Made by a program: the position numbers and the translations under genes. This document shows, one piece after another, positions 641 through 43,051 of a stretch of DNA of 64,000 bases. Below the pieces are notes generated by a model. The model worked only from the letters and a program-made list of their open reading frames with translations, made no database searches and was not told the DNA's origin. Each line of letters starts with the position of its first letter. The stretch's first letter is position 1. The DNA is from a virus (taxonomy: Duplodnaviria; Caudoviricetes), in the IMG/VR virus record IMGVR_UViG_3300029288_006559, positions 70,293 through 134,292 of that record. One strand, 5' to 3'.

Positions 641-1222
641 ATGCAGCTCCCGTTAAATCGAGATGAGGTTTGGCATCCTCTCAACGAGTGTTTGCCTCAA
701 TTATTAGAAATTGTAGATGAAGTTAGGAATAGAAACTATTCTTTTGATAAAGAGCTTAGTGAAGTTTCTAATATAAAAATTTCTCTAGACGAGGCACCCC
801 AAGATGATGTTGTAGGGATGAATAAACTATATGCCGAGATTCAAGCCTATCAGAGTAGAACTTCTGCTATTATAATGGATATTTATAGAGAAAAAGCTTG
901 GTGGCAACAATGTTATTTTCGTGCCAAACGGCTTTATAGGAAAGCACGTGGTGTTTTGTTGAATACAAGAGAAGATGTTAAGAAACTTAAAAATAAAGAG
1001 CTTCAAGAGGCCGCTATCCATGAAGAAATAAGAGAGCTTGTTGATTTAGTAGATATTTTAGACCAAGTTATTGAAGACTTAGATTTATCTATTGCTCTTG
1101 TTAGTGTAAAAAAAGAAGAACTGGACAAAGCTAATACTAATCTTTCACGACAGCAGAAAGCTATCGATACTCTGGTGGGTTTAGGTTATCCTGTAAAACC
1201 CCGACCAGATTATCCTAATTAG
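641..1222 (+). CDS. Coiled-coil protein, possible UvsY-like recombination mediator
   Basis: All-helical 193 aa next to recA; function inferred from context only. Confidence 0.35.
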   Translation: MQLPLNRDEVWHPLNECLPQLLEIVDEVRNRNYSFDKELSEVSNIKISLDEAPQDDVVGMNKLYAEIQAYQSRTSAIIMDIYREKAWWQQCYFRAKRLYRKARGVLLNTREDVKKLKNKELQEAAIHEEIRELVDLVDILDQVIEDLDLSIALVSVKKEELDKANTNLSRQQKAIDTLVGLGYPVKPRPDYPN

Positions 1223-1230
1223 GTAATTGC

Positions 1231-19000: not shown

Positions 19001-20557
19001 ATAGACCCGGAACAGTGGATAGAAAGATGGAAATTAGAGATGAGATATCTGCAACAAGATATTGCCGGTAATATGGTTTATTTTCATCATCCCTCTACAG
19101 GCCCTGTAAGGCACGATGACTTCGCAGATGTTTGTTTTTTATCGGGAACTAAAATTATTACAAGAAAAGGATTAAAAGATATAGATCAAATTCAAACGGG
19201 GGAAGAAGTTCTTACTCATAAGGGAAGATATCGTAAAGTAATCAATACTTCAAAGAGAAAATATACAGGGAAAGTAACTTCTATTAAAATAAATGGGTTT
19301 AACAAACCTGTTATTAGTACTCCAAATCATTTATATTTTGCTCATGCATATCAAGAATGTAATTTAGCTGTTAAGAACAAAGGAATTTGTACACCGTATT
19401 GTCATAAAAACGGGATTAGTAGTTGTAAATTTAATTGGAAAGAATCTCCCTCATGGTTATCTGCAAAAACACTAGTAAGGAATCAACAATTATATTATCC
19501 TATTTATAAAGAAATAAAATATAATGAAAATTACATTTTGGATTTAGTAGATATTCTTCCTTCTGAGACTTTATCAAAATGTTTTGTTGAAAAGGATATT
19601 ATTTGGTATGGTAAATCTTGGTGGGACAAAGATACAAAAAATTCTAAGAGTCGTTCTATTCCGCGTTTTATAACTTTTACACCTGAATTATTTAGATTAT
19701 TTGGGTATTATATTGCTGAAGGGTCTTCTACAACTAATCAAATAATGTTTTCTTTTCATTTTAAAGAAAAAACTTATATAAATGATGTGAAAAGTCTTCT
19801 TTATAAAATATTTGGTATAAAAGCAAAAATTATAGAAAATATTTCTTCTAACAGTTGTCAAGTGTATTTTCATAATCATTTAATGGCGGATTTATTCAAA
19901 TTTTTGTTTGGTAAAGGTGCTGCTAATAAGCAAATTCCTTCTATAGTAGAATTCTCTACGTTAGAATTACAAAAAGAATTTATTGTAGGTTATTGGAGAG
20001 GAGATGGTTGTAAGAATAAAGATAATTCTTTTTCTTGTGGTTCTATATCTGAAAAATTAATATGGCAAATTAGAGAAATGCTTTTACGGTTAGGTATAAA
20101 TTCATGTACTTCGTCTCGTATTAATAATAAAAATTATATTTTTAAAAATAAAGTTCTTAAAGGTAATGGTAGTATCTATTATATGATTAAAGTACAAGGA
20201 GAGTTTGCGCAAAAACTCGCTGACATATTAGATTGTTCTTTAAAGAGCTTTGAACTGCATAGAGAAGTTTGGTTAGATGATGAAGCTTTGCACTCTCGTA
20301 TAACTAAGATAACATCTTTAAATTATTCTGGTTTTGTTTATAATTTACAAGTGGAAGAAGATGAATCTTATGTTACTCAAATAGGAGCTGTACATAATTG
20401 TGCTAATTTAGTCCACCGTATGTGTTTACGTGTTTCTCCTACGAAGGAAAGCGCAGCAGAAGCTAGAAGAGCAGGTATAGGACCGATACGTATGAATAGA
20501 GGCTATAAGCCTGTTATAGGTAAACCTTTGTGGGGAAACCGTCTCCTGCGTAGTTAA
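16100..20557 (+). CDS. terL: Terminase large subunit with two inteins (spliced product about 626 aa)
   Basis: Spliced Walker A GRRSGK|S, IMESSP, nuclease ALDPG, YDQF, HDDFADV|C. Confidence 0.92.
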   Translation: MTDLFQSYANTVLDSSNATLPVQNKVDAFEFITSPNYMGVDPFPVQRVVIKAFYNLWEKYPPDDEEQTIINVLKNNWKIDINLLRIDPIKVLLLCLGRRSGKCVGKNSKILNAKTGKYITIEELSKIDLSQVRIPTRDNNNNIIDTSNFRVEYSGKKLCYKMITRVGREIVCTKDHQFLTLGGWKTLENLVLRDRIAIPSKLPFFGDNPLTVGEAKILGYMIGDGGTTTKVPSFANTDAFVIQELNILVKTLISSDLEVKHTEAQKDYCYSICRTHAFCKTQNPMISFLKKYGVWGKLSIEKEIPPEVFMSSKNTISAFLNALYTCDGSLYIKKGKKSYKGLVLSFGVGSKLLAEGVRDLLLRFGINARIRYTPASYVNHQGERKFFDSWKTDVSSFRDISLFMKEIGFFGKKQLDAQKLFKSILSNSLKVKDSNYLFSIPKEIWKYLDEQRQKKGIVYQDLFNTRNIGGGIHKSWSINRKKLKKAASALNDSWLHSLCDGDILWDEIISIEEIGEEDTYDIEVPETENFITDNIVVHNSRLLSFIATYAMYELITLGNPQSYYNIMERHPIHVVHIASKDKQAREMFAFTSDNIRRTSFFKPYMDFDKNNMTELRLFTPYDLTLNEEIKRRNKVVVRGNKREPLLPGSLLVESITTSGATSRGKCIYLLMFSELAHFLRTSIDITSGEDALVAENPQSDYAVVKAMTPSVLDFGRDGRIIMESSPREKGGEFYHHYCIGGGIEQENFENLTFEPTYQVIQLSTWEARPSIARESLDPEFRKDPIGALMEFGAHFGNPSGKFISESVINSIPQIGRPLTRHATGTYHSFIALDPGGKAKKKVADTYALAWGHYDFSPKAENVTYWIDGMRGFDATNRYLGSGQVERITVDPNTVMGWLLDLVKDLGGKGFVDEIAYDQFDSTQPVSTLQSLGLYAIETTFTNSYKADMYGNFLQLAERGQVKMYGVDIDPEQWIERWKLEMRYLQQDIAGNMVYFHHPSTGPVRHDDFADVCFLSGTKIITRKGLKDIDQIQTGEEVLTHKGRYRKVINTSKRKYTGKVTSIKINGFNKPVISTPNHLYFAHAYQECNLAVKNKGICTPYCHKNGISSCKFNWKESPSWLSAKTLVRNQQLYYPIYKEIKYNENYILDLVDILPSETLSKCFVEKDIIWYGKSWWDKDTKNSKSRSIPRFITFTPELFRLFGYYIAEGSSTTNQIMFSFHFKEKTYINDVKSLLYKIFGIKAKIIENISSNSCQVYFHNHLMADLFKFLFGKGAANKQIPSIVEFSTLELQKEFIVGYWRGDGCKNKDNSFSCGSISEKLIWQIREMLLRLGINSCTSSRINNKNYIFKNKVLKGNGSIYYMIKVQGEFAQKLADILDCSLKSFELHREVWLDDEALHSRITKITSLNYSGFVYNLQVEEDESYVTQIGAVHNCANLVHRMCLRVSPTKESAAEARRAGIGPIRMNRGYKPVIGKPLWGNRLLRS
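16406..17716 (+). mobile_element. Intein with LAGLIDADG homing endonuclease (437 aa) in the TerL Walker A
   Basis: C-VGKNS start, TKDH block B, LGYMIGDG / LNALYTCDG, ends VVHN followed by Ser. Confidence 0.93.
19133..20398 (+). mobile_element. Intein with LAGLIDADG endonuclease (422 aa) in the TerL nuclease domain
   Basis: C-FLSGT start, TPNH, FGYYIAEG / VGYWRGDG, ends AVHN followed by Cys. Confidence 0.93.
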
Positions 20558-22019: not shown

Positions 22020-22434
22020 TTGTATGGATAAAACTTCTCTACATTTAGAAGGGGATATGGAAAAAGATGTTCCTATTCTTTCTCCAGATATTGTTTCTTT
22101 AGAAGAGGCCGATCCGCAGGCTACAGTTGTTAAAATGGCTGATTTAATTCACAACAAACTTTATACTGTTGTTCCTAAACAACACGATCTTGCTACAGGT
22201 ATTCAACCTGAAATTCAACATTTTAATCGTAAGTACGTTTTTTTATGGGATGATTACAGTAGTTTAAATATTTTTTCAGATGCAAGATGGAAAAAGATTA
22301 CTGTACATCTTCCAGAGGGTTTACGTAACTCTCGTTCTTTAACTAAACTCGTTGGCGATGTTTATGCCTTACCTGAAATTCCCTCATCTTGGCATATTGA
22401 GGAACAACCTACTCCTCCCCGCCATGTAGAGTGA
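22009..22434 (+). CDS. Hypothetical protein
   Basis: ORF; start uncertain. Confidence 0.5.
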   Translation: MKNNCMDKTSLHLEGDMEKDVPILSPDIVSLEEADPQATVVKMADLIHNKLYTVVPKQHDLATGIQPEIQHFNRKYVFLWDDYSSLNIFSDARWKKITVHLPEGLRNSRSLTKLVGDVYALPEIPSSWHIEEQPTPPRHVE

Positions 22435-22486
22435 GAATAAATAGATAAATGGATAAGTTTTCTATTCACAATAAAAAGGAATAAAA

Positions 22487-23080
22487 ATGAAGAGTAACAT
22501 AATCAAGGGTATACTGTTGTTTGTAGCTTTATTTGTTGCAGGAATTTTATGTGGTAATTATGTTAGAAGTTCTGCACCAATAGAGAAGAGTGGTATATCT
22601 AAACTAGATTCTAGTAAAATAGGATTAAGCAAAGAGGATGTACTTAGAATGGATGACTCTGATATAGCAACAGTAAGGGAGAAGTATCTCGTTAAAATGT
22701 TATGTGATACTGCTAGAGCTTATAATATTCCAGAGTCTGTTTTTTGTGGTTTAGGTTATCATGAAAGTGCTAGGTTTAGAGTGTTACATTCAAAAGTCAA
22801 AGACAGTAATGCAAAGTTTTCCTATGGTCTATTTCAGATACAATTAGGCACTGCAGTTTTATATGATGGTTCTGCAACAGAAGAGAAGCTATTGGATCCT
22901 ACGTATAATCTACATCTGGCTGCAGTTATATTTAAGAAAAACATGGAAAAACATGGTAGTGTGGAAAAAGCTATAGCTGCACACAATGGTTGCATTAAAG
23001 ACGGTAGAATAACTAATCCAAATTATATGAAGGAAGTTTATTCTTCGATAGGAGTAGTAACGGTTAAGTATAATTTATAA
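22487..23080 (+). CDS. Lytic transglycosylase (SLT family) with N-terminal signal/anchor
   Basis: HES catalytic Glu, SYGLFQI, AIAAHNG. Confidence 0.85.
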   Translation: MKSNIIKGILLFVALFVAGILCGNYVRSSAPIEKSGISKLDSSKIGLSKEDVLRMDDSDIATVREKYLVKMLCDTARAYNIPESVFCGLGYHESARFRVLHSKVKDSNAKFSYGLFQIQLGTAVLYDGSATEEKLLDPTYNLHLAAVIFKKNMEKHGSVEKAIAAHNGCIKDGRITNPNYMKEVYSSIGVVTVKYNL

Positions 23081-25042: not shown

Positions 25043-25816
25043 GTGAAGCAAGCGTCCGACACATACGTAACTAGTGTTCCTGAGCCTGAGATTTCTCCAG
25101 AAGAACAGATAGGACTTGTGATTGTTCCCGATCTAAAACTTCGTAGGACCAATCCTAAAAGGTTTGATATTCATCAGGATTGGTACACATCTAACGGAGA
25201 ACACGAAGATACTTCCGTTTCTAATCGTTACGATAATACTGAACCTTTGTTTGCTAGTTTAGACCAACTAGATTGGGAAATAGAACATTATGTAGAAGGA
25301 AGTTCTTTATTTAAAGCTTCTTCTCTACATTTATTCTCTTTTGAAGATCTACTTCTTAAGCGTAGACAAGCTTATTTACAGTCTGTAGGTAATATAATTA
25401 TCTACAAAGATTTTGCTCAAGAAGTAAAAGATTTTATTGATGAGAAGTTTAAGGATTTATTAGATAGACATCCCAAAGCAAGAGAGCATTTGAATTCTTT
25501 ATCTTTAGAGTTTACTCTACGTCCGGAGGATTATCGTAATAATATTGGGGCAGAATATTATCCAGAGACAAAAACTATAGGTTATTATCTTCCAAAAGAA
25601 ACTTTGAAGAAAAATTGGGCTGGAGTTGTTCACGAAATAGTGCATGCTTTACAAGATTTTTTTCAAGACTCAGAGCCAGCACTTGTTTCTCCACCCAAAG
25701 TAACTGCTTCTTATAAAACAAATAGGTTTGTTTACAGAGCAGATAGGGGGGAAGAACAAGCCTATGCTATTGAGTATGAGTTTAAACAATGGGTGATTAA
25801 ACATGCCTGTAAATAA
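25043..25816 (+). CDS. Protein with C-terminal HExxH zincin metallopeptidase domain
   Basis: VVHEIVHALQ and downstream EEQAY; GTG start inferred. Confidence 0.65.
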   Translation: MKQASDTYVTSVPEPEISPEEQIGLVIVPDLKLRRTNPKRFDIHQDWYTSNGEHEDTSVSNRYDNTEPLFASLDQLDWEIEHYVEGSSLFKASSLHLFSFEDLLLKRRQAYLQSVGNIIIYKDFAQEVKDFIDEKFKDLLDRHPKAREHLNSLSLEFTLRPEDYRNNIGAEYYPETKTIGYYLPKETLKKNWAGVVHEIVHALQDFFQDSEPALVSPPKVTASYKTNRFVYRADRGEEQAYAIEYEFKQWVIKHACK

Positions 25817-28800
25817 TTCTCCTTCGTTACAAATTAATCCTGTTATACAAGATGTATGGAATAAATTAAAAACGGAAAGACGTCCTTTAAGTGTACAAGA
25901 TTTTGTAGGGCTTGATCCAAAGTTAGTTGCAAATGCGTTAGCATCATTGTATAGACAGGGATATGTGTATAATGTCGAAGGTCTTTGGGCTCCTACTCAA
26001 GCTACGGTTACCAATAAAGCTAAAACGTATACTCCTACAGAAGAAATTACTGGAGTTAAGCTTCCTTCAAAAAATTTCTTTGATAATTATTTAGCTCCTG
26101 TGCTATCTCATTTTTTAAAAATTCATCCTGAATATAAAGCAACCTTCGATTTCCTTTTTAAGAATCCCGTATATAGAAAAGGCATAACGGAAGATATTCA
26201 AAAGATCTTGTCTCGAGAGTATGTTAAGTTCGATCCTCGAAAAGCAACTATTCCACGCTACAAATATCCAGAAATATTAAATAGTGTTGAACAGGCTCTT
26301 GTAGAAGAATTAGGAGAAATTAATAAATATCATTCTTCTTTAAAAGGCAAAGTACCTTCTGTTGCAACAAATAAGGCTACAGCTGATTTCTTTAATCAAT
26401 TGATGCAAACTCAAGGTGATCAAATTATTGCAAATGTTTTAAATGAGGCAGGTTTAGGAAGGCCTGGTCATATTTTAACAGAAGCCGAAATTAAGCAAAC
26501 AATTGCAAATGGTAGCGTAAAAGAGGTTATAAAAAACAAAAGAATAGATAAAGTGGTTTTTCAAGATTACTTATACAATGCAATTAGTAATTCATCCTAT
26601 GCAAAAGAACATAATATTTTAGTAGAGGGAATGGGGGATGAAGATATACTTCGTATTTTTGGAATGCAGTTACAAGCTAATCTCAAAAGAGCGGCCGATG
26701 TAATAAATAATTTTCGTAGTAGTGGTTTGGTAAAAAAATATCCTGGAATTCTTTCTGGTCGGGACTTAAAAGAAGCTAACTTTACGTTAGCAGATTTATC
26801 TGATCTTATGATTGCCAATAGTGATTTTACTGATGCTAATTTTTCTAATGCTAAATTTGATGGAGCTAGAATAAAAAATAATAATTTCTACAAAGCTAAA
26901 TTTATAGACGCTTCTTTAGTAAACGTTGCTGCTTTTGAAGATAATATTATTGGTCAAGCCGATTTTCAAGGAGCGGCTATCCCGAAAGGATTTCCCGATG
27001 AATCTAATACAGGTATACCTATTAATTTGAATTTTCATGAAATTGCTCATAGTGAGGAAGGTTTAGATGCGGCGTTAAATTTAAAAAGCCATTCAGTGCA
27101 TTCTCTTCCATTAGAGGAAGAAGAAATTGATGATGCGAAAGCTATAATGAAGGCCTTACATGGAGTTCTTCAGCACAGAAATGTTCTTAGCAGTTTAAAA
27201 CTGTCTTGGGAAGAACCCGATCCTGTGGAGCTTGCTAAAGAAATGTACGATTCGGGAGAGTGGTTGTCTTATGTTCCTTCTAATGGTAAAGCAATGAAGA
27301 AACCGCGGAAGTATCAACCCGGAGAATTAGTTGCAAAATTAGTGGATAGTGAACATCCTGCCTCCGGAAAATATTATTATGTAGCATCTTATAGCACTCC
27401 CGGAACTGGTAATTATATTTTATTAAACGCACAGGGGCAGGTGAGAAAATCTCAAAATATTAGAAAAATTGAGCTACTCTCTCCAGAGCAGAAAGACATT
27501 GTTTTTGGGCAGGAGCTACCAACCCCCTCTCTTTCTTCTCTATCTTTAACTGCTTCTTCATTGACCGAAGCTCAAGTTCAGCAATTACGAACTTGGATAC
27601 AAGACCCTGAAGCCTTACCTGACTTTTTACCTCCTGACTCTATGAATTGGTTAGTGTTAAAGAACAAGTCAGGTGAATTAGCTGCCGCGGGTTTGGTAAA
27701 AGCAGAAATAAATAAACTATTTGGTAGAGCGAGGAATTTAAGTGCTCCAAAAGAACCTGTAATTTCTCCTGAGGAACAGAAAAAACAACTACAAAACCAG
27801 TCTATAGAACAGTTTATAAATAAATACAAAGATGCGGAGGAGTTTCCCGTTGAGGATGTTCTTTCTCTTATGTCAGAAACTCAGGGGGAATTACGTAACC
27901 TTATTTCTGCTTACGGGCCTATGCTTTCTCAAGCAGAAGCACGGGCTATTTTATATGGTCTTGCATCTTCTTTAAATCAATATCATGTACCTAAATCTGT
28001 TACTCCTAAGAAATGGATAAAAGCTTTTCCTTATTCCGTTAGTATGAATAATTTAAGTGATACAGGGACTGCTCATGGAGTTGCAGGAAGAGGAAAGCAA
28101 TTTGGTATTCTCATTCGTCCAAATCTTGCTCAAATGTCTCCTGAATTAGCAAATTCTACTATGATTGCTATTGAAGAAGCAGGAACACATTTAAGAGGTG
28201 CATTAGCTTTTAGTCGTATTATGCCCTATCATTATACTTCTATAGGATATAGAGGAACAGAATCTCCTACTGTTAAGAATGTTTGGTTTATTAGTGAAAT
28301 GCAAAGCGATGCTTATCAAAAAGGCAATGATGAAATAAAAAGTAAGGAAAAAGCTCGGGCTTTTCGAAACTATTTTAGACATTGGCCAGAAGTATTATTA
28401 GGAGCTATAATTACTCAAGCCCAAAAAGCAGGTGTAGATGAAATATGGATGCCTGAAGGTAAGGAAGTTATTGCAAAGACTGATGCGTCTAAGTTAAAAG
28501 AAGATAGTTGGGATTATGCATACGATAGACCTGCAAAAGCTTATGGCGGAAGACTAAAAAGCATTGGAGATAACATTCTTCTTGATCCAGGTAGTAGCTA
28601 CAAACGTACTACCAATATGGCATATGTTATTGATATTTCTGGAATAAAGCAAAAAGCTAGTTTGAAAGTAGCTTGGGAAGAACCTGAAATAGCAAATAAT
28701 ACTGAAGAGTTGATCCAACTGTTAGCTCCTTATCAAGTGTGGGAATTAAGTAATACTACACCAAAATTCTATCTTTATTTAGGAGAAAAACCTTCGTTAT

Positions 28801-30620
28801 TTGAGACTTCTGATTCTCCTTCTAATTACACTGTAAGGGGGGTGTATACAGAACTTCTAACAAACAATCCAGGGGAGTTAATTGTTTATTTACCTCTTGA
28901 AAAGGAGTACCCTCTAACTTTAGTAGCTGAAGATTGGAGGAAACTCGATAAAGAGGCAAATTTAAGAACTTTTGCTAAAGCTATAGATGACTATAAAGAT
29001 AATATTATTCATCATATGAAATTTATTATAGATGAGAATTTACCTAAGTTTCAGGTGATATCAAAATACGTAACTATGGATATGTTAGCCCAATTTGCTT
29101 TTAGAACATTTTTTGATGAGTATGGCGTTCCTGAAGAATTAAAAAATGATTCTGAATTTATCGGGGATGTTAAGAAAGTATTCGAAGATGAATTCGGGGC
29201 TAGAATCTGGGAGCCTCCTTATATTGATTGGCTACATTGGTTGCAAAAAGCTTTGAATGATGTTCTTTATTATGTTCACAATCAAAGACACAATGTACAA
29301 CCGGATATGACTGTAAGCGATCAAGAGCTTGCTCGAGATTGGTTTAATTTTTGGTTACAAGATCAAGTTCCTTCTGATATTAAGGGAGCCCCTTGGTTTG
29401 TATCTAAATTTATACCAGCCGTTCGTCAATTGGTTAAAGAACAAGGCTTAGGAGATGTTTTAAGTAGAGATTTTATTCCTCCTCAAACAATGGAAGAGAG
29501 AACTCAGCAAATTATTCATCCTTCTGATACTGGAGAGGGAGAGAAAATCCTAGAAGGAGAGGGGGAAGGATTATTACCAGAAGAAGAAGTAAAAACGCAA
29601 TTTCCCGGGCAGGAAAAGAATGTTAAGTTTTTATCCCCAACCGAAAGACGGAAAACAATTGATAAGTATTTGGATGAGCTTTCTACCGCTCAAGAATCTG
29701 GAGATAATGCAAAGGTAAATGAAATAAAGCAAAAGTTACAAGAATTATCAGCATCTTCTTCGTTGAAGCTATCTTGGGAAGAACTAACAAAAGAAGAAGA
29801 ATTAAAAATAAATATACTTCATGCTATTTATTGTGCAGAAGCTGTATTACCTATATATGAAAATAAATATCCTAATGACAATAGACCTAGATTAGCTATA
29901 GAAGCAGCGAAGACAGTATTAAAATATCCTACTGAAGAGAATAAAGCTAAAGCCAAGGCTGCTGCTTGGGCTGCTGATGATGCTGCTGATGATGCTGGTT
30001 TTGCTTCTCATGCTGCTGCTTATGCCGCTGCTAGGGCTGCTACTTGGGCTGCTGCTTGGGCTGCTGATGCTGCTGCTAATGCAATTAAGTATGCTAAAAA
30101 AGCAGCTAAAGAGGCTAATATAGATATAGATTTCGATAGTTTATTATCTAGAGCTCAATCAGATATATGGGAATATATTAATATATCAAAATCTAGTAAT
30201 ACTAGTGAAGCTAGTAAAGCTAGTTTGAAAGTAGCTTGGGAAGAACAAACACTTCCTCCTCCAAGAGACGATGTCTATCCCTATTCTGTTAAGACTCCGT
30301 CATCACCTAGAATTTCAGGAACATATTTATGGATTTTGAAAAATCTTTATGATAATGGACCTCAAAGAATTATTCAGTTATGGGAGAAATATGTATCTGA
30401 GAGAAAAGGCAAAGATCCTGATAGGTTGAGAGAAAATTATTACGGTCAATCACCTGAGATTCTGAATAGGGGGGTAAGTGTTAAGTATTATCAAGGTGTT
30501 AGTTCTAGGATAAATGATCTTGTTCATTTTGGTTGGATAGGAAAATCTGCAGAAACTAAATACTATTACGTACTATTACCTAAAGGTCTGAAAGAACTGA
30601 AGAAAGCAGGAATGGTATAA
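25803..30620 (+). CDS. 1605-aa polyvalent modular protein (wHTH, pentapeptide repeats, E-x-Q-S-D domain, Imm5-like domain, wHTH), putative virion cargo
   Basis: Domains separated by four [SA]SLK[LV][SA]WEE motifs; lies upstream of the portal. Confidence 0.7.
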   Translation: MPVNNSPSLQINPVIQDVWNKLKTERRPLSVQDFVGLDPKLVANALASLYRQGYVYNVEGLWAPTQATVTNKAKTYTPTEEITGVKLPSKNFFDNYLAPVLSHFLKIHPEYKATFDFLFKNPVYRKGITEDIQKILSREYVKFDPRKATIPRYKYPEILNSVEQALVEELGEINKYHSSLKGKVPSVATNKATADFFNQLMQTQGDQIIANVLNEAGLGRPGHILTEAEIKQTIANGSVKEVIKNKRIDKVVFQDYLYNAISNSSYAKEHNILVEGMGDEDILRIFGMQLQANLKRAADVINNFRSSGLVKKYPGILSGRDLKEANFTLADLSDLMIANSDFTDANFSNAKFDGARIKNNNFYKAKFIDASLVNVAAFEDNIIGQADFQGAAIPKGFPDESNTGIPINLNFHEIAHSEEGLDAALNLKSHSVHSLPLEEEEIDDAKAIMKALHGVLQHRNVLSSLKLSWEEPDPVELAKEMYDSGEWLSYVPSNGKAMKKPRKYQPGELVAKLVDSEHPASGKYYYVASYSTPGTGNYILLNAQGQVRKSQNIRKIELLSPEQKDIVFGQELPTPSLSSLSLTASSLTEAQVQQLRTWIQDPEALPDFLPPDSMNWLVLKNKSGELAAAGLVKAEINKLFGRARNLSAPKEPVISPEEQKKQLQNQSIEQFINKYKDAEEFPVEDVLSLMSETQGELRNLISAYGPMLSQAEARAILYGLASSLNQYHVPKSVTPKKWIKAFPYSVSMNNLSDTGTAHGVAGRGKQFGILIRPNLAQMSPELANSTMIAIEEAGTHLRGALAFSRIMPYHYTSIGYRGTESPTVKNVWFISEMQSDAYQKGNDEIKSKEKARAFRNYFRHWPEVLLGAIITQAQKAGVDEIWMPEGKEVIAKTDASKLKEDSWDYAYDRPAKAYGGRLKSIGDNILLDPGSSYKRTTNMAYVIDISGIKQKASLKVAWEEPEIANNTEELIQLLAPYQVWELSNTTPKFYLYLGEKPSLFETSDSPSNYTVRGVYTELLTNNPGELIVYLPLEKEYPLTLVAEDWRKLDKEANLRTFAKAIDDYKDNIIHHMKFIIDENLPKFQVISKYVTMDMLAQFAFRTFFDEYGVPEELKNDSEFIGDVKKVFEDEFGARIWEPPYIDWLHWLQKALNDVLYYVHNQRHNVQPDMTVSDQELARDWFNFWLQDQVPSDIKGAPWFVSKFIPAVRQLVKEQGLGDVLSRDFIPPQTMEERTQQIIHPSDTGEGEKILEGEGEGLLPEEEVKTQFPGQEKNVKFLSPTERRKTIDKYLDELSTAQESGDNAKVNEIKQKLQELSASSSLKLSWEELTKEEELKINILHAIYCAEAVLPIYENKYPNDNRPRLAIEAAKTVLKYPTEENKAKAKAAAWAADDAADDAGFASHAAAYAAARAATWAAAWAADAAANAIKYAKKAAKEANIDIDFDSLLSRAQSDIWEYINISKSSNTSEASKASLKVAWEEQTLPPPRDDVYPYSVKTPSSPRISGTYLWILKNLYDNGPQRIIQLWEKYVSERKGKDPDRLRENYYGQSPEILNRGVSVKYYQGVSSRINDLVHFGWIGKSAETKYYYVLLPKGLKELKKAGMV
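28653..28683 (+). repeat. 31-nt exact direct repeat, copy 1 (encodes KASLKVAWEE)
   Basis: AAAGCTAGTTTGAAAGTAGCTTGGGAAGAAC, identical at 30216-30246. Confidence 0.9.
30216..30246 (+). repeat. 31-nt exact direct repeat, copy 2
   Basis: Identical to 28653-28683. Confidence 0.9.
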
Positions 30621-31858
30621 TGTTTTGGGAAGAAGATATTATTGTTAGCAGTGTAGAAGAGTTAATTACGCAAGCAGAGCCTGGGCAAATATGGTTAGTT
30701 CAAGGTAGAAAATGTCCTTATCCTTATTTTCATATCATAGATCGTTTACAGCGTTCTTCTCTTGATCGTAGTTTTTATATTAATGGAGGAGCCTTTGCAA
30801 AAAATCTAAATTTTAGTAGTACTATAAATCCTGAAGGAGAAAACTCTCATATTGATGAAAAAGATTTTCCTTTAAAACTGGTAAAAGATTCTACAACAGC
30901 TTCAGAGAAACCTTTAATGGATTACGATTCTACTAGAGGTCAGTGGTTTGTAAACGAACCTGATGCTCCTGCTTTAGATAATAAAGATCTTACTCAAATA
31001 TTTGATACTGATTTGAATTTAAAAGACAAGCAACGTTCTGAAAAAGAAATAGTAGACTTTAGGGATAGAGAAAATCTCCAGCTTGCTTTTAGTAGTTTAA
31101 AATTATCGTGGGAAGAGGATTTTATTTCTCCCCAAAAGGTGTTAGAGTTATTGGATAAAACTATAGCAGAAGAAAATGAACAAGCTACTCAACGGTATAT
31201 AGAAACTATTGAAATTGGAGAAACAGATGCAAAAAAATATTTTGATCCTCTAACAGCTAGTGTAAAAGATTTTTCCGGGGTTCCAGAGGCATCCCAATTT
31301 TTCTCTGCAGAACGCGAACTATTTCATGTTGGAATAGTGTATGATATCATTGCAATTCCTGTAGGTACAGAAGAAATTATTTATTTAGCTATGGGATTAG
31401 GTTCCCCTCCTGTAGAAGCTTCTCTAAAATTATCTACTCCTGAAACGTACACTGACGGAGATGATTTTAATCAAAAGAAGAACGAATATGATAATAGAGC
31501 TTTGCAGTTTCGTCAAGAAGATAGTTTATCTTTAGTTCTACCAAAGGATACGTTAAAAGGAGAGACAGATATAACGTATTTTCCTTCTCCAAAAGTGTAT
31601 CAAGACATTAACGAAAACCCAGGTTATGCGGATATGGCTATTACTGCAGATTTGAAATTAGCTTGGGAAGAAGAAGAATTTAAACCTGGGGATAAGGTAA
31701 AGCTATTAGAGGATTGGCCTCTTGATCAAAATAGTAGGGATATTATTCCCGCGGGTACTGTAGGTAAAATAAACGAATTACCTGGAGCTCAATTTAGTTG
31801 GAAAAGCTTCCGTATTCAGTTAGGTGTAGAACCTTGGGAAATTGAGCGTGTAATGTAA
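30620..31858 (+). CDS. Modular protein with LKLxWEE motifs and a C-terminal KOW/SH3-like domain
   Basis: Starts MFWEE; internal SSLKLSWEE, ASLKLS and ADLKLAWEEEEFKPGDKV. Confidence 0.65.
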   Translation: MFWEEDIIVSSVEELITQAEPGQIWLVQGRKCPYPYFHIIDRLQRSSLDRSFYINGGAFAKNLNFSSTINPEGENSHIDEKDFPLKLVKDSTTASEKPLMDYDSTRGQWFVNEPDAPALDNKDLTQIFDTDLNLKDKQRSEKEIVDFRDRENLQLAFSSLKLSWEEDFISPQKVLELLDKTIAEENEQATQRYIETIEIGETDAKKYFDPLTASVKDFSGVPEASQFFSAERELFHVGIVYDIIAIPVGTEEIIYLAMGLGSPPVEASLKLSTPETYTDGDDFNQKKNEYDNRALQFRQEDSLSLVLPKDTLKGETDITYFPSPKVYQDINENPGYADMAITADLKLAWEEEEFKPGDKVKLLEDWPLDQNSRDIIPAGTVGKINELPGAQFSWKSFRIQLGVEPWEIERVM

Positions 31859-31977: not shown

Positions 31978-34900
31978 ATGGGTAGGTTACTTATAGGCGG
32001 TAAATTTGCATTAGTGAAATCCTCCTCCGAAGACGATTTTAAGCGCGCAAGAGAGGGTAATTCTGGTTTAGCGGGCGCTGGATTTATTGACATTCCTAAC
32101 TATGAAGCAAAACGTGGCGTACGGGGTATAAACAAAGTTCAAGATACATTAGCAAAGCAAGCTACCTTTACGGATGTTACACGTAATGCTCCTTTGTTTA
32201 ATGATCCTAGATATACATCTTCTACCTTATCTATTCCTACAGATGAAAGAACTTTAAACGGTCTTTATAGATTCTTTGCAGAAACAGATCCTATTGTAGG
32301 TTCTGCTATTAAATTGCAAACCGAACTTCCTTTAGCTGATTTAAAACTCGGGCAATGCGAAGATCCTGGAGTGCAACAGCATTATGAAGAAATGTGGGAT
32401 AGAATAAGTGGATATAGGTTATTAACGGATATTGCTTCTGAACGATCAGAGATTGGAAATTGCTACCCTTTTGGAGCTTTTAATGAACATGATTATATGT
32501 GGGATCAATTTGCTATCCTTAATCCTGATTATGTTAAAGTAGAATCTACATGGATAAATCAAAAGCCTCTAATAAAATTAATTCCTGATGAAGCATTAAA
32601 AAAGATTGTACAAACACAAAGTCCTTCTTTTATATTTAAGCAGTTACCTCCTGAAATCATAAAGAATGTCTTATTTAACCAAGAAATTCCTTTAGCGTCA
32701 AATAATACATTTCATATTACCCATGCAAAGAGACCTTACGAATTAAGAGGTAGGTCAATTATTAAGCGTATTTTAAAAACTTTAATGCTCGAGGATAGGT
32801 TTAATCAAGCTAATTTTGCTCTTGCTACCAGACATGCTGTTCCTATCACTGTTGTTAAAGTTGGAGACGCTTCAACAGGTTGGTTACCTTCTAACGAAGA
32901 AATCGACTCTGTTAGAGAGGCTTTTTCTGCTTACGATCTTGACCCTAATTTCTGCTATGATGAGGAAACGGAATGCTTAACAAAAGACGGCTGGAAGAAA
33001 TATACGGAATTAAGTAAGCAATCGGAAATAGCTTGCTTCAACCCCAAGACGAATGGTTTAGAGTATCATAAAGCTTCTTATATTAATATTCAAGATTATG
33101 ATAATGTTATGTATCATTTTAAAACCCGTGGTATGGATATGAAAGTTACTCCCAATCATAGAATGTGGGTATTAAGAGATGGAAAGTGGCAGGTTGTTTT
33201 AGCTGAAGATGTTAAGTGTGAAGACCAATTTAGAACTGTAGTAAGTAATTTTGAGTATGATGAAGAATTTCCTAAAACTATAAATGTTGGAAAATATACT
33301 TTAGATATGGGAGATTTCTTCGAATTTGCCGGATGGTATATATCGGAAGGATCATTAGAAACTAAACACAACTATACAGTACACATTACGCAATGTAAAG
33401 AAGATACAAAGGAACAAATTCGCATTTTACTAGAAAAGTGTTTTGGATATGTCGGATATTATGGTAGTAGTTTTCAAATTTGTGGGAAAGATATAGGAGA
33501 GTTTATTTGTAATACTTTTGGTAAAGGATCTAAAACAAAGTTTCTCCCTCAATGGATGTTAAATGCTCCAAAAGAATATCTCGAACGATTATTTGAAGCT
33601 TACCGTTTAGGAGATGGAACTCAATGGAAGTTAAAAAATAAAGAAAACTTTATTGTATTAGCTTCTCAATCAGAAGCGTTAATTGATGCTTTTCAAATAA
33701 TAGCTTTAAAATTAGGTTATGCTAGTAGAAAAAGATTTTTAAATTTGAATTATAAAAAGATGGTAAAAGGAAAGTATCAAAAGAAAAATACTCCTTATAA
33801 AATGTTTTATTTGAATGTGACTAAGTGTAAGGTCATGTCTTATCCTAAAATACCTCACAGACTTAAAGTAGTTAAAGAATTTCCAAAATTAGTAGTAGGA
33901 GTTATTCCTTACTCAAGTTCAAAACGTATTGCTTGGGATAAAGTTAATATTTCTCAATTAGTAAAGCAAACAGGCGGGGTTCTTCGTCCATTAGTTACAG
34001 CTTTTAGAGTAAATGCGGGTACTATTACTACTCAAGCAAGAAAACAAGGAGTAGTTGCTAAAGTAGGGGGAGAAGGTCATGTAAAGGGAGGAAAAGTTTT
34101 TGAACCTAGATATATTAATAAAGTCCCTTATAAAGGTAAGATTTGGTGCGTAACTGTTCCTACGGGAATTATAGTAACCCGCCGAAATGGGAAGGTGTGT
34201 ATTCAGGGAAATTCCTTGTTTTACCACTACGGTATAAATATTGAGTTCTACGGTTCCAATGGCCGTATGTTACCCGTTGGGCCTGAGTTAGATCGTATTT
34301 ATAGATTAAAGTTTATTGGCCTTAATATGCATGAACAATTAATGACCGGAGCCGGGGGAAGTTATTCCCAAGCTTATATTAATTTAGAAGTTCAGCGTCA
34401 GAGGTATCTAAACCTTCAACTCCAACTTGAAACTTTTTATCATCAGGGTGTTTGCAAGCCAGTGGCAGATTTATGTGGATTTTATAGAATTAAACAGCCT
34501 ATTTCTAGTTATACTGGAGTGTCATCAACAAGATATGGTCAAGAAGATAGACGAGAGATAGAGACTTTAAAACAATCTTCTACTTTAAGAGATTTTCAAG
34601 ATAACAAAGAATACAAGCAGTATCAGGCAGCTAAGTTAGCCGAAATTGAAAGTCAAAAAGCTCATCAAGTAAGAGAGTATATTTATCCGAAACTTGACTG
34701 GGGGGGTATGAATGCTGCTACAGATGAGAATTTAAAGAACTATATTAAGTGGTTACAAAAAGAAAGACCTTGGCTTGTTGATGATGCTACTCTTGCCAGG
34801 CTTGGGCGTTTAGATAGAGATACGCAAGAAAAAGCTTATATAAAGGATTTGGAAAGAACACAAGCTCGCTATAAAGAATTATCTAAGAAAGGGTTATTAC

Positions 34901-35226
34901 CTTTTGCTCTTCAAAAAGGCACTCAAAGCCCTGCAGACATGGGGGGAATAGGAGATATTAATGTAGGTCCAACAGGGGGAGGTGAAATGGCAGGTCCTGG
35001 AATGGAAGGAGGAGAACCAAACGCTCCTATGGGAGTTGGAGGTCCTCCAGAAGCAGCTAATGCTCAAGTACCTCCTGCAGGTGTTCAAAGTTCTTTAAAA
35101 GACATGGAAAAAGATGTAACTGCATTTGTTTTTAAAGATGACATGACTATTGGTGCAGAGAACAAGGCTTTGCAAAAAGCTAAAGAATATGAAAGTAAAG
35201 CACTTTTTAGAGTAGTTAACAGGTAA
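31978..35226 (+). CDS. Portal protein with intein
   Basis: YRFFAETDPIVGSAI, GNCYPF, ILNPDYV, RGRSIIKR portal-like motifs; Gly/Pro-rich tail; precedes the head protease. Confidence 0.8.
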   Translation: MGRLLIGGKFALVKSSSEDDFKRAREGNSGLAGAGFIDIPNYEAKRGVRGINKVQDTLAKQATFTDVTRNAPLFNDPRYTSSTLSIPTDERTLNGLYRFFAETDPIVGSAIKLQTELPLADLKLGQCEDPGVQQHYEEMWDRISGYRLLTDIASERSEIGNCYPFGAFNEHDYMWDQFAILNPDYVKVESTWINQKPLIKLIPDEALKKIVQTQSPSFIFKQLPPEIIKNVLFNQEIPLASNNTFHITHAKRPYELRGRSIIKRILKTLMLEDRFNQANFALATRHAVPITVVKVGDASTGWLPSNEEIDSVREAFSAYDLDPNFCYDEETECLTKDGWKKYTELSKQSEIACFNPKTNGLEYHKASYINIQDYDNVMYHFKTRGMDMKVTPNHRMWVLRDGKWQVVLAEDVKCEDQFRTVVSNFEYDEEFPKTINVGKYTLDMGDFFEFAGWYISEGSLETKHNYTVHITQCKEDTKEQIRILLEKCFGYVGYYGSSFQICGKDIGEFICNTFGKGSKTKFLPQWMLNAPKEYLERLFEAYRLGDGTQWKLKNKENFIVLASQSEALIDAFQIIALKLGYASRKRFLNLNYKKMVKGKYQKKNTPYKMFYLNVTKCKVMSYPKIPHRLKVVKEFPKLVVGVIPYSSSKRIAWDKVNISQLVKQTGGVLRPLVTAFRVNAGTITTQARKQGVVAKVGGEGHVKGGKVFEPRYINKVPYKGKIWCVTVPTGIIVTRRNGKVCIQGNSLFYHYGINIEFYGSNGRMLPVGPELDRIYRLKFIGLNMHEQLMTGAGGSYSQAYINLEVQRQRYLNLQLQLETFYHQGVCKPVADLCGFYRIKQPISSYTGVSSTRYGQEDRREIETLKQSSTLRDFQDNKEYKQYQAAKLAEIESQKAHQVREYIYPKLDWGGMNAATDENLKNYIKWLQKERPWLVDDATLARLGRLDRDTQEKAYIKDLERTQARYKELSKKGLLPFALQKGTQSPADMGGIGDINVGPTGGGEMAGPGMEGGEPNAPMGVGGPPEAANAQVPPAGVQSSLKDMEKDVTAFVFKDDMTIGAENKALQKAKEYESKALFRVVNR
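32953..34212 (+). mobile_element. Intein with LAGLIDADG endonuclease (420 aa) in the portal
   Basis: C-YDEETE start, VTPNH, AGWYISEG / EAYRLGDG, ends IQGN followed by Ser. Confidence 0.9.
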
Positions 35227-35240
35227 GGAGAAAAGACATA

Positions 35241-37460
35241 ATGTTAGTTAAGGTGTGTAATCAAGTAGTTACTCCCATTCCTCTTGCACTGCAAACAACT
35301 GCAACAAAAGAACGAAGGGTTATTCCTATTAATTCGAAAGAATTTAGGTACTTACGTTTTCGTGCAATAGGTTGCTCTGAGGTAGCCGGGCAGAATGGAA
35401 ATCACGATTCTTTTCCTTACGGGGAATTTGAAAATGAAACCCCAGGCTATGGCTATAAATCTTTTATCAATAAAAGAGCTCATTGTTTACCTGAAGGAGC
35501 TCTTATACTATTAAAAGATTTTTGTTATAAACCTATAGATATCATGGAAATTGGAGATGAAGTTCGGACACACGATGGAGGATGGAGTAAAGTTTCTAAA
35601 ATATTTGAACATGATATTGATGATAAAATTGTAAAAATAAAAGCTGAGGGTGTATATAAATCTTATTATACTGCAGAACATCCTTTGTGGGTGGTTAAGC
35701 AAAAAATAAAAGCAGATGCTGTAAAAGTAGTTGCTAATTTAAGAAATAATAGTAAAAAGAATAGGTTAGTATCTCAAGAGGAGCAACAAAGTTCTGTATC
35801 TAGTGAAATTGGGGATCCGGAATGGATAAATGCTGAGAATGTAAGTGAAAGGGATCTTGTTGTATTACCTTATCCTGAAATAGAAAGAAAAGTTAATGTA
35901 GAAATCGCTTCTTTAGATGCAGCTAGATTTTTAGGATTTTATTTAGCAGAAGGTTCTGTAGCTGGTAATAAAGGAGTTTGGGGGGATACTTTAAATCAAT
36001 GTTTACAATTTTCTTTTCATAGAAAAGAAACTTCTTATATTGATTTTATATGTAGGTTTGCAAAAGAGAGGAATATAGAAACAACGCAACATATTGCAGC
36101 AGCTTCTAAGAAATTTGGTACTGATAGTTGTGTTATTGTAAATATGTTTTCTTCTGAATATGCAAATATAGCTTCTATACATTGTGGAAAGCTTGCTAAA
36201 TATAAAAGTTTATCAGAAGATATAATGAAAATGCCAAAAGATTGGCAATTAGCCTTTTTAAAAGCATATTTTGAAGGGGATGCTTGTATAAAAGAAGATT
36301 TAGGTATAAGGGGCTCGACAGCATCTAAAGTATTAGCTTTACAGATACAAGAAATGTGCTTATCTCTTGGTATTTGGTGTAATATAGCGGAATATAAGCA
36401 ACATACTCCAAATAATAGTTGGGTAAAAAACTCTTATGGAAATCCTATTTATGTGTATTCTTTTACTACACACGAAGCTGAATTAGTTTTTCCTAATATA
36501 AATTTTTTACATAAAGCAAAAAATTGTGCTGTGTTGAAAACAAATTTCGGTATACTTACTCCTATAAAATTAAAAGAATATTTACCTTATAAAGGAAAAG
36601 TTTACAATATAGAAGTGGAAGAACAAAATTCTTATGTGGTAAATAATATAGCTGTTCACAATTGTGAGCACAATTCTGGCTTAGGTTATGCTGGAAGTAT
36701 AGGAGATTTACCAGATGCTTTTTTAAACAGATTTAGTTTTGAGGGAATTACTCTTCCTACAGAATTTGCTTCGGCAAGAGCATTATCTTGGGAAAAATTA
36801 GCTGGAAAAAAATATGCTAGCCTTCGAGAACAAGTTCTATCTTTACCTAATCAGAAGGATGGATCTATTGAGGTACTAATGCGTATAGATACTAACCTTG
36901 TAAAGAGCGCCACCATTGAGCCAAAGACAAGAGCTTTGCTAGAGCGTATTGTGCGCATGATTGATACAGGGCAACGCTTGACTTGTAGTATGGGGGCTAA
37001 CGTTAAAGAGTCTAGGTGTTCAGTGTGTGGTAATCTAGCTCAATTTTCTTATCAATATTGTGAACACCTGAAACCTACACGTAAGGGAGGACTTTCGATT
37101 GTATCCGCAAATCAGGTTAGAGATTTACTAGATAAGGACTATTTGCGTCCTGAGTGGTTAAAACATTTAATAGCTAGTAGCTACGATGTTCAAGAGATTT
37201 TAAAAGGGGCTAGCAATAAAGGAGTTGCTGCTAGAAACATAGAAATTAATCACGGGGTTTCTTTCTTTGAATTATCCGTTGTTGCCACACCTGCTTATCC
37301 TGATGCTATTGCGTTGGAGAAATTAGCAAGGCAGCAAAATGAAAGTTCTTCAGAATGGATAAAAAGACTATCTTCAGTGCTTACAAATAATGAAGCTTTA
37401 GATTTGTATGCTGAATTACAGAAAAGAGGATTGATCAGTAACTTGTGTTCTATTTCATAA
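35241..37460 (+). CDS. Prohead/capsid maturation protease with intein (spliced product about 346 aa)
   Basis: NGNHDSFP, YKSF...H|CEH, SMGA...CSVCG...CEH, FFELSVVATPA; directly after the portal. Confidence 0.75.
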   Translation: MLVKVCNQVVTPIPLALQTTATKERRVIPINSKEFRYLRFRAIGCSEVAGQNGNHDSFPYGEFENETPGYGYKSFINKRAHCLPEGALILLKDFCYKPIDIMEIGDEVRTHDGGWSKVSKIFEHDIDDKIVKIKAEGVYKSYYTAEHPLWVVKQKIKADAVKVVANLRNNSKKNRLVSQEEQQSSVSSEIGDPEWINAENVSERDLVVLPYPEIERKVNVEIASLDAARFLGFYLAEGSVAGNKGVWGDTLNQCLQFSFHRKETSYIDFICRFAKERNIETTQHIAAASKKFGTDSCVIVNMFSSEYANIASIHCGKLAKYKSLSEDIMKMPKDWQLAFLKAYFEGDACIKEDLGIRGSTASKVLALQIQEMCLSLGIWCNIAEYKQHTPNNSWVKNSYGNPIYVYSFTTHEAELVFPNINFLHKAKNCAVLKTNFGILTPIKLKEYLPYKGKVYNIEVEEQNSYVVNNIAVHNCEHNSGLGYAGSIGDLPDAFLNRFSFEGITLPTEFASARALSWEKLAGKKYASLREQVLSLPNQKDGSIEVLMRIDTNLVKSATIEPKTRALLERIVRMIDTGQRLTCSMGANVKESRCSVCGNLAQFSYQYCEHLKPTRKGGLSIVSANQVRDLLDKDYLRPEWLKHLIASSYDVQEILKGASNKGVAARNIEINHGVSFFELSVVATPAYPDAIALEKLARQQNESSSEWIKRLSSVLTNNEALDLYAELQKRGLISNLCSIS
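35484..36662 (+). mobile_element. Intein with LAGLIDADG endonuclease (393 aa) in the prohead protease
   Basis: C-LPEG start, TAEHP, LGFYLAEG / KAYFEGD, ends AVHN followed by Cys. Confidence 0.92.
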
Positions 37461-42553: not shown

Positions 42554-43051
42554 ATGTACAATTGGCGAAAAGTTTTTACGTCTTCTGACATAATCAAAAC
42601 AGCTACTACTTCTTGCCCCTGGTGTGGATCTAGTAATCCTCCTGTTCCTACAGAAGAACATTTAGATGAGGCTATTTTTGAACACCAGCCAAAAGATCTA
42701 TACCATGCTCTACGTAATCCTTTAATGTGTCCAGATTGTCTACATGTAGGTAGCTATGAAGATTGGCAAGCGGAAGAGAATAGGATGACTTCTCTAGATA
42801 GTTTACATGCTTCTAATTATCGTTTAGGTAATCCAGGCCGTAACTGCGCAGCTTGTCAACTGTTCGCTTCTCAAGAAAATCCTCTTTCTATGACAGGACA
42901 AGTTCCCGAAGAAAACAAGGCAGGAGTTTGCGGCGTACACAACACAAGAGTTGTTGGAAAGATGTTGTGTGACGACTTTAAACCTGAGAAAAGGGATCCT
43001 TACCATTCTTTAGATATGCATGAAGGCGTTGGTGAAGACGATGGATGGTAA
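42554..43051 (+). CDS. Cys-rich protein starting MYNWRKVF
   Basis: CPWC, CPDC, CAAC...C...C. Confidence 0.55.
   Translation: MYNWRKVFTSSDIIKTATTSCPWCGSSNPPVPTEEHLDEAIFEHQPKDLYHALRNPLMCPDCLHVGSYEDWQAEENRMTSLDSLHASNYRLGNPGRNCAACQLFASQENPLSMTGQVPEENKAGVCGVHNTRVVGKMLCDDFKPEKRDPYHSLDMHEGVGEDDGW

Follow-up and report, generated by a model that had tools for sequence, protein, structure and literature searches.

The window analyzed here is a 64,000-nucleotide (nt) stretch of viral DNA (Duplodnaviria; Caudoviricetes), the last 64 kb of a 134-kb phage record in IMG/VR (IMGVR_UViG_3300029288_006559, here G000). It carries the gene for P0001, a large protein that is divided into modules by copies of a short peptide motif, and the subject of this study is that motif, the DNA encoding it, and one of the modules, an Imm5-like cassette. 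The features of the window are listed in Table 1. Module borders in P0001 were set by splitting the protein at the motif and by alignment with two homologues, P0002 and P0003. Three junctions are distinguished, namely, J1 between core1 and core2, J2 between core2 and core3, and J3 after core3. In a Pfam scan of P0001 (E ≤ 0.01), only Imm5_like, Imm5, and pentapeptide families were listed. P0001 and the adjacent motif-bearing gene, P0043, are located immediately upstream of the portal gene, i.e., in the head-assembly block, and the motif also occurs in the product of a third gene of the window, P0044.

Table 1. Features of the window. Positions are nucleotides of the window unless given as residues; residues of modules are those of P0001. 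ORF, open reading frame.
Feature	Position	Strand	Basis or remarks
RecA gene, 3′ end	1-285	+	PF00154, E 1e-112
P0001, polyvalent protein of 1605 amino acids	25803-30620	+	ORF, translation, Pfam, alignment
P0001 core1	residues 1-467		pentapeptide repeats; conserved backbone
Motif copy 1, SSLKLSWEE	27189-27215	+	junction J1, core1/insA
P0001 insA	residues 468-579		lineage-specific module
Degenerate distal copy SLSSLSLTA	27534-27560	+	closes insA; matches SSLSLIA, the single insert-free J1 string of P0002
P0001 core2	residues 580-956		predicted GNAT fold in C-terminal half; conserved backbone
Motif copy 2, KASLKVAWEE plus 1 nt	28653-28683	+	J2, core2/insB; first arm of the 31-nt repeat
P0001 insB	residues 957 to about 1052		lineage-specific module
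Putative relic EANLRTFA	28953-28976	+	closes insB; weak, aligned by eye with ASLFLIA of P0002
P0001 core3	residues about 1053-1323		conserved backbone
Motif copy 3, SSLKLSWEE	29757-29783	+	J3, core3/Imm5-like; carries the 5′ cassette breakpoint
P0001 Imm5-like module	residues 1324-1477		lineage-specific module
Imm5-like cassette	29770-30243	+	DNA homology unit common to six G001 copies
Motif copy 4, KASLKVAWEE plus 1 nt	30216-30246	+	cassette/last module; second repeat arm, 3′ breakpoint
P0001 last module	residues 1478-1605		lineage-specific module
P0043, 412 amino acids, four modules	30620-31858	+	starts MFWEE; last module SH3-like, common to P0044
P0043 motif copy SSLKLSWEE	31091-31117
P0043 motif copy ASLKLST	residue 267 of P0043
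P0043 motif copy DLKLAWEE	31649-31672
Portal gene, intein-bearing	31978-35226	+	phrog_16240, E 1.7e-45; intein/LAGLIDADG
Candidate head-maturation protease, intein-bearing	35241-37460	+	just after portal; weak
P0044, 675 amino acids	43020-45047	+	leader, 2H phosphoesterase, Tad6, MORN-like repeats, motif, SH3-like module
P0044 leader motif, M..MDGNLKLSWEE	43050-43073
P0044 motif copy GSLKLSWEE	44733-44756
P0044 C-terminal motif, SSLKLCD followed by stop	45024-45044

An exact 31-nt repeat at two module junctions had been described in an earlier, sequence-only reading of this stretch, and two exact copies of the 31-mer AAAGCTAGTTTGAAAGTAGCTTGGGAAGAAC were recovered in the window, both on the + strand (28653-28683 and 30216-30246). 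With up to 3 mismatches allowed, there was no third site in the window, and no dinucleotide shuffle out of 100 contained two matches. Each copy reads in frame in P0001 as KASLKVAWEE, followed by one base of the codon after it. The other two motif copies of P0001 (27186 and 29754) are 68% identical in DNA, which agrees with the statement in the same reading that the remaining copies differ at synonymous sites. For one and the same peptide under the codon usage of this genome, ten identical codons have a probability of P = 6e-4. These codons thus mark the 31-nt identity as a product of shared descent or conversion and not of chance.

The module that ends in the second arm of this repeat had been taken to be Imm5-like, and it matches PF21805 (Imm5_like) with an E value of 8.7e-8 and 32.6 bits, the gathering cut-off being 25. 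When IMG/VR was searched with P0001, a single other contig was found. This contig (G001) is 41.5 kb long, comprises our loci L004-L008, and is 24% complete, compared with 73% for G000; since both records are incomplete, gene searches in them are to be read with that limit. Comparison of G001 with G000 by blastp (E ≤ 1e-4) matched only the Imm5-like module, with six hits at P0001 residues 1325-1486. The high-scoring segment pairs between the cassette and G001 start at 29754-29770 in four of six cases and end at 30243-30245 in five of six. The best copy (G001 22192-22657) is 97.3% identical to 29770-30243, with about 390 nt at 100%, and its flanks are unrelated; identity extends from TATCTTGGGAAGAAC of the 5′ motif (29769/29770) to GCTTGGGAAGA of the 3′ motif. 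The borders of cassette homology fall inside the WEE codons of the flanking motifs. The motif-split Imm5-like module is present in seven proteins, and its six motif-flanked copies stand in six different two-sided contexts. A score above 25 bits for Imm5_like was reached by 5 of the 24 G001 proteins scanned.

Four other metagenome runs were inspected, and in all four the summed contig depth was 19-110 over 29756-30203 and 0-10 over the flanks. Contigs from other metagenomes diverge from the window at 29773 and 30245. The final 31 nt of the cassette match J2 (28653) and not the otherwise best G001 copy, whereas a different G001 cassette copy is an exact match to 28653-28680; the G001 copies share exact matches of 26-28 nt with the 31-mer. 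As these alignments place it, module exchange occurred exactly at motif-coding DNA, and among the sequences compared the 20-31 nt of motif codons are the sole sequence common to the different junctions. We infer that homology at the motif, rather than selection on the junctions, drives the exchange.

The sequence-only reading had proposed that the motif-coding DNA serves as a recombination anchor, in the manner of an integron inside an ORF. The anchor part of this proposal is supported by breakpoints at the motif, whereas the integron part is not: Phage_integrase (PF00589) had no match at E ≤ 1 in G000 or G001, both incomplete, and the control search was positive in 14 of 14 genomes. A dedicated site-specific recombinase that sees motif DNA as an att-like site would account for the array-like layout of the cassettes and for the conserved 3′ junction on each of them. 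Against it stand the missing tyrosine-recombinase match in the two incomplete records, the synonymous variation of junction DNA with no conserved noncoding structure, and the lack of shared DNA upstream of the genes that begin with a motif leader (see below); no sequence common to the 70 nt upstream of these genes, promoter-like or other, was seen by eye. We therefore rate such a recombinase as highly improbable. Unlike integrons, the system has no match to an IntI-type recombinase in these incomplete records, and its junctions are coding, synonymously variable, and, by sequence, not attC-like, so that "integron" fits as an analogy only.

The 31-mer could also have let an assembler join different genomes, in which case the order of the modules would be unreal. 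Exact repeats of k-mer length are classic sites of chimeric joins, and the Logan contigs built with k = 31 in four runs do end at 28682 and begin at 30216/30217. Among these contigs, which break at the repeat, none was listed that joins the two arms as the 1563-bp deletion between them would. Such an artifact is nevertheless very improbable. The frame is open across 1605 codons, the cores follow one another in the same order in homologues such as P0002 and P0003, and all four flanks of the repeat were found in independent runs (at least half of the words sampled occur in each of 11 runs). If each segment is present once, only the reported order makes a linear path. As a separate observation, a contig of run X11 that spans 27155-28460 (insA plus core2) differs from the window at 135 of 1306 positions, and the adjoining contig, 25575-27152, is identical to the window. 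Run X11 may contain a mosaic strain that changes over some 35 nt upstream of motif copy 1.

To place the breakpoints in a wider family, homologues of P0001 were collected by a word-index search and an exhaustive HMMER search, which yielded 41 representatives including P0001 itself. A tblastn search of a GenBank phage collection with P0001 gave no match. A scan of JGI metagenomes returned only G001 and a 5.5-kb variant 99.45% identical to it (L052), and no P0001 strain with different cassette content was found in that scan. The order core1-core2-core3 is conserved in P0002, P0003, and many more homologues, and pentapeptide repeats are present in 26 of the 33 homologues scanned. Domain content is not invariant among them; the variable modules include Fic (3 of 33), LRV/HEAT, DUF7699, DUF2188, and 2H phosphoesterase. 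A string resembling S-S-L-(K/R/S)-(L/F) is present at all three junctions, whether or not they hold an insert, and at J3 it was read by eye in all 26 rows. Inserts longer than 60 amino acids were found in 3 of 19 rows at J1 and in 6 of 14 rows at J2. The sequence-only reading had suggested that the breakpoints of such insertions be compared with the motif, and all nine inserts run from motif to motif, the distal motif being degenerate in two of them. The homologue nearest to P0001 is P0002, with 60% identity over the full alignment and 65% in the best local one, which takes in 26% of the query. It lacks all four extra modules of P0001 and has adjacent "empty" motif pairs instead, ASLELCD-ASLFLIA and ASLELVD...SLRIA, the latter running up to the stop codon. 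P0003 and P0006 contain different modules, each flanked by SLKFSW or SLKLGW.

An alternative that these data address is that the motif is only a peptide linker or processing signal. Cassettes would then land anywhere by illegitimate events, selection would retain the insertions that fall in linkers, and the 31-nt identity would result from a recent local conversion of no wider consequence. Linkers in any multidomain protein tolerate insertions, the motif is conserved as a peptide with synonymous drift, and most copies, at about 68% DNA identity, are a poor substrate for homologous recombination. However, in several independent copies the breakpoints of both sides fall at the same WEE codons, give or take a few nucleotides. 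In addition, the identical 31-mer at J2 has no cassette homology beside it, the G001 copies retain their 26-28 nt of exact identity with it, and P0002 keeps "empty" motif pairs at the same junctions. On this balance, a motif that acts only as a linker is unlikely.

How the cassette is to be placed in history depends on the relationship of the two records. G000 stops and G001 starts in the same collagen-like GYSGDSGIS repeat, with 91-95% identity; this tail-fiber repeat, with a period of 27, covers window positions 63735-64000 and L006:1-540. G000 is without a recognizable head protein or sheath, and the gene contents of the two records are complementary. PHROGs profiles identified in G001 a collagen-like tail fiber, a major head protein (E 1e-49), a tail sheath, a tape-measure-like protein, and baseplate/lysozyme genes. 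The sizes also sum up, with 134 kb at 73% completeness on one side and 41 kb on the other. Because of the shared repeat, the absence of recognizable head and sheath genes from G000, and the fit of sizes, G001 is probably not an unrelated phage but the lacking structural part of this genome or of a sister genome. The two records probably adjoin each other in one genome type, the assembler having broken it at the GYSGDSGIS repeat. Transfer between two unrelated phages was considered and dropped, since the collagen-like repeat common to both ends and the complementary genes indicate that they may be of one genome type. The RecA that the phage had been said to encode is present (PF00154, E 1e-112, G000:69600-70385).

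A distinct codon usage of the cassette, earlier judged by eye, was quantified. The GC content at third codon positions was 0.110 in the cassette versus 0.240 in the genome (binomial p 4e-5). The abundance of ATA was confirmed, at 8 of 11 Ile codons versus a genome fraction of 0.35 (p 0.012), as was that of GCT, at 35 of 42 Ala codons versus 0.55 (p 1e-4), although much of this GCT excess lies within a tandem repeat of period 12, so that these codons are not independent. insA deviates in the opposite direction, with a third-position GC content of 0.317 (p 0.03). The tandem repeat forms the Ala/Trp-rich, GCT-rich center of the cassette (29940-30094); it shows indels of 6, 9, 39, and 60 nt in contigs from other metagenomes, and in L052, the strain variant, the frame is shifted by the homologous repeat, either genuinely or through an assembly error. 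The AlphaFold model of the module is all helical, with a predicted local distance difference test score (pLDDT) of 85-93 in most 10-residue blocks. A stand-alone Imm5-like gene of 171 amino acids is also found in G001 (L007:5525-6040; G001 25525-26040). It has neither leader nor flanking motif, adjoins the tail sheath and tube genes, and may be an untagged version of the cassette.

The motif was then considered as a peptide. Its family consensus is [SA]-S-L-K-[LF]-[SAG]-W, and the form in this phage is LK[LV][SA]WEE, which occurs eight times in the six frames of G000 and in none of 500 residue shuffles. All eight copies are in three ORFs (four in P0001 and two each in P0043 and P0044), and 8 of the 9 WEE tripeptides in any frame of the window are part of the motif. 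Outside the three motif genes, a loose pattern gave 6 hits genome-wide, compared with 5.7 expected by chance in the whole genome. Because the eight copies vary synonymously, with Ser encoded by both TCN and AGY, selection, as read from the codons, works on the motif peptide. The motif is retained in homologues just 25-50% identical to the query (phmmer). A strict version was counted 55 times in 16 of 44 stored proteins, whereas 200 shuffles averaged 0.7 copies and never exceeded 3. A scan of IMG/VR for degenerate motif DNA returned 37 stretches, with clusters only in 4, all of them in G001; the other 33 have one in-frame copy each and were taken as chance.

G001 contains 14 motif copies in eight ORFs, six of which are N-terminal leaders: six genes open with M(N)WRKV[LF][SA]WEE right at the start codon and continue with unrelated sequence. 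P0044 also begins with a leader, and Pfam assigns to it a 2H phosphoesterase (E 4.5e-11) and a Tad6 Thoeris-inhibitor domain (E 3e-16). An Acb1-like match of the 2H phosphoesterase lies below the Pfam cut-off. P0044 is a candidate injected multi-target counter-defense protein. From the domains recognized, the cargo marked by the motif would be of anti-defense type, comprising Tad6, 2H phosphoesterase, Imm5_like, Fic, and the GNAT fold. The use of the motif as an N-terminal leader and its conservation as a peptide suggest that it acts as a signal at the protein level, recombination being a side effect or an additional use; its chief job is probably at the peptide level.

Predicted structures place the motif between folds. 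In the AlphaFold (AF2) model of P0001 residues 1290-1605, pLDDT falls below 50 exactly over SSSLKLSW, which is the only low-confidence, nonhelical stretch between the core3 helices and the confident, all-helical Imm5-like domain. The C-terminal KASLK of the core2 model is also below 50. The motif is thus predicted to sit in a disordered linker. The remainder of the core2 model (window 27567-28673) is confident, with a pLDDT of 86.7, and its C-terminal half (model residues 153-362; P0001 about 741-950) is predicted to have a GNAT acyltransferase fold. All 50 of the 50 rows listed by VIA-align were GNAT-type chains (Z 7.4-9.4, 109-147 residues aligned), the best Foldseek E value was 1e-3, and tRNA-acetylating toxins were among the structural matches. 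Pfam returned no GNAT family match in P0001, and a PDB sequence search (E ≤ 1) had no hit to either core2 or the C-extein of the candidate protease described below. The last module of P0001 has no homologues in the alignment; in the ESM Atlas its best score, 0.80, was at chance level, and this candidate was discarded.

The motif genes are found among virion genes in both records. In G001 they are interspersed among the major head protein, tail sheath, tape-measure-like, and baseplate genes. The ORF that follows the portal gene of G000 is a candidate head-maturation protease. Its C-extein resembles phrog_18299 "head maturation protease" over 43 residues (E 8.6e-5), and Pfam Peptidase_S78 gives the ORF 13 bits, below the cut-off of 21. 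The gp21 family (Peptidase_S77, PF03420) had no match at E ≤ 1 in either incomplete record. Inteins with LAGLIDADG domains interrupt three virion-assembly genes, the large terminase (window 16100-20557), the portal (31978-35226), and the next ORF (35241-37460), and in the terminase Pfam suggests two elements, an Intein_splicing/LAGLIDADG element plus a separate Hint domain. In G001, a LAGLIDADG_2 homing-endonuclease ORF (L006:11952-13526) lies immediately upstream of the major head protein ORF, which covers only positions 63-314 of the 318-position PHROG profile; this head gene may be split by an intron or mobile element.

The reading that we favor, with confidence somewhat above even, is that the peptide is a capsid-targeting and protease-cut tag and that its coding DNA is an exchange point used by homologous recombination. 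The motif peptide, which lies between modules that fold independently in the late proteins P0001, P0043, and P0044 and in eight G001 proteins, would direct these proteins into the assembling virion, where a maturation protease would cleave at the motif, probably between the hydrophobic residue and [SA]W, since this one position suits leaders, internal copies, and C-terminal copies alike. Cleavage would free the anti-defense and effector modules (pentapeptide repeat, GNAT, Imm5-like, 2H phosphoesterase, and Tad6), which would enter the host with the DNA, like T4 internal proteins. The address and cut-site part of this reading is based on leaders on unrelated proteins, disordered junctions, the virion context, and modules of anti-defense type. 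At the DNA level, general homologous recombination or gene conversion on 20-31 nt of near identity would move, duplicate, and delete cassettes in frame, and the exact 31-nt identity would be the trace of a recent exchange or conversion between J2 and the 3′ end of the cassette. General recombination is the simplest explanation because the motif codons are the only shared sequence, the breakpoints fall there, RecA is present, and an integrase was not found in the two incomplete records.

Several points weigh against this reading. Selection for intact junctions could make the breakpoints look sharper than they were. If G001 is the same genome, the near-identical cassette may represent copying between paralogous loci, not transfer between phages. 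The protease assignment is weak, resting on the 43-residue PHROG match and the subthreshold S78 score. No motif was seen in the portal or in the major head protein of G001, so that a general head protease needs other sites there or spares these proteins. Among the stored proteins, the residues after W vary across the family, which makes the cut position a guess. Several proteins end in the motif plus one or two residues (SSLKLCD or SSLKLY followed by stop), and such C-terminal motifs are no less compatible with a binding tag than with a cut site. Some of the G001 motif genes are in the tail block, and the cargo could therefore be in the tail and not in the head.

These C-terminal copies are also the best argument for a motif that is never cut, a docking or structural element, for instance a strand with a scaffold, portal, tail-lumen, or chaperone protein as its partner. 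The polyproteins would then stay whole, and exchange at the motif would continue as described. Insert-free junctions often have two adjacent motif-like strings that could pair, the presumed prime-side residues vary, and no confident protease was found. Docking is disfavored by the N-terminal leaders of 8-11 residues on unrelated proteins, which follow the pattern of removable targeting peptides (PMC3012670, PMC12373910). It is also disfavored by the position of the motif, predicted to be disordered and outside any fold. An uncut, multi-enzyme chain of 1605 residues could be packed, but its ejection would be hindered. We regard an uncut docking element as unlikely, though still a serious rival, and the combination of targeting, cleavage, and exchange at motif DNA remains the preferred reading in the comparisons that follow.

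The nearest precedent is the set of internal proteins of phage T4. The T4 leader ends in (L/I)-x-E. In IPI-III and Alt of T4, the capsid-targeting sequence is removed by the prohead protease gp21. This sequence is all that the T4 internal proteins have in common (PMC3012670, PMC12373910), and the resemblance to the present system lies in a short leader on otherwise unrelated, fast-evolving anti-defense proteins in a late-gene setting (PMC3012670, PMC12373910). The palette of internal proteins differs between related phages among T4 relatives (PMC3012670, PMC12373910, PMC4122927), and shuffling has been proposed for the internal-protein locus, where the authors on PeSLs (see below) point to similar observations made earlier (PMC4122927). 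Unlike the T4 leader, the motif has an unrelated sequence, SSLK[LF]SW, and is also internal and multiple, in polyproteins of up to seven modules whose cleavage and packaging are putative. The incomplete records G000 and G001 also differ from T4 in giving no match to a gp21-type protease (PF03420).

Polyvalent proteins are long, multidomain proteins encoded beside virion genes that combine effector and anti-defense domains (Iyer et al. 2017, PMC5512222). Their delivery with DNA, sometimes with processing by a peptidase, has been proposed, and cassette-like recombinational variability has been raised (PMC5512222). P0001 and P0044 resemble them in carrying several unrelated effector or anti-defense domains per chain in a neighborhood of virion genes. 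The words "pentapeptide" and "linker" do not occur in the text of PMC5512222, and its accessible part describes no conserved junction peptide that doubles as leader and DNA breakpoint. MuF, zincin-type MPTase, and ParB-like domains, which belong to polyvalent proteins, did not appear in the general Pfam scan of P0001, in which no search was targeted at them.

Short repeated DNA motifs around variable cassettes are also a feature of PeSLs, promoter/stem-loop motifs that mediate modular shuffling in T4-like phages (PMC2839356, PMC4122927). Exchange, deletion, and mini-circles between neighboring PeSL copies diversify close relatives (PMC2839356, PMC4122927). Unlike PeSLs, which are intergenic regulatory DNA, the repeat described here is coding and frame bound and rearranges domains within proteins. 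In the head proteolysis of giant phages (SPN3US gp245), many head and ejection proteins carry a repeated short cleavage motif, A-X-E (PMC10052503), and the [SA]-W-E of this phage has the same A/S-X-E shape. However, this Glu is not conserved across the wider family, whereas SSLK[LF] is, and the SPN3US cleavages mostly strip N-terminal propeptides and do not separate modules.

In bacterial polymorphic toxins (CdiA "VENN" and the Rhs core), a peptide motif borders a variable module, its coding DNA is the recombination point, and orphan cassettes occur. There, one C-terminal toxin tip is swapped in bacterial genes. Here, several internal positions are involved in genes of a phage virion block, and the commonest cassette is immunity-like (Imm5_like) rather than a toxin. 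A comparison of polyvalent proteins with polymorphic toxin loci has been drawn by Iyer et al. (PMC5512222). A literature search on the motif strings alone found no phage paper. The general idea of leader or junction tags on phage cargo is known from T4, and what is distinctive here is the nucleotide-level evidence that the coding DNA of the tag is the exchange point.

These findings define an undescribed family of large virion-block proteins with pentapeptide repeats, a predicted GNAT fold, and a conserved core, comprising at least 41 cluster representatives. If the favored reading is true, this would be a clear instance in nature of one short sequence under selection both for its role as a protein signal and for its role in recombination, and it would provide plug-and-play variation of injected counter-defense proteins. 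Tentatively, and with confidence that falls short of even, we extend this to a single motif of 7-9 residues with two jobs in one phage lineage, serving as a virion address and cut site for a dozen cargo proteins and as a portable patch of homology by which anti-defense cassettes would hop in frame among the genes concerned. The whole would be a recombinase-free cassette array inside an ORF that constantly reshuffles the proteins injected before the genome. With the tag SSLK[LF]SW, uncultured phages can be searched for candidate injected effectors, such as Tad6, 2H-phosphoesterase, Fic, and Imm5-like proteins. Should the tag and its cut site be confirmed, they could serve for loading capsids with foreign proteins, a use to which the T4 leader has already been put.

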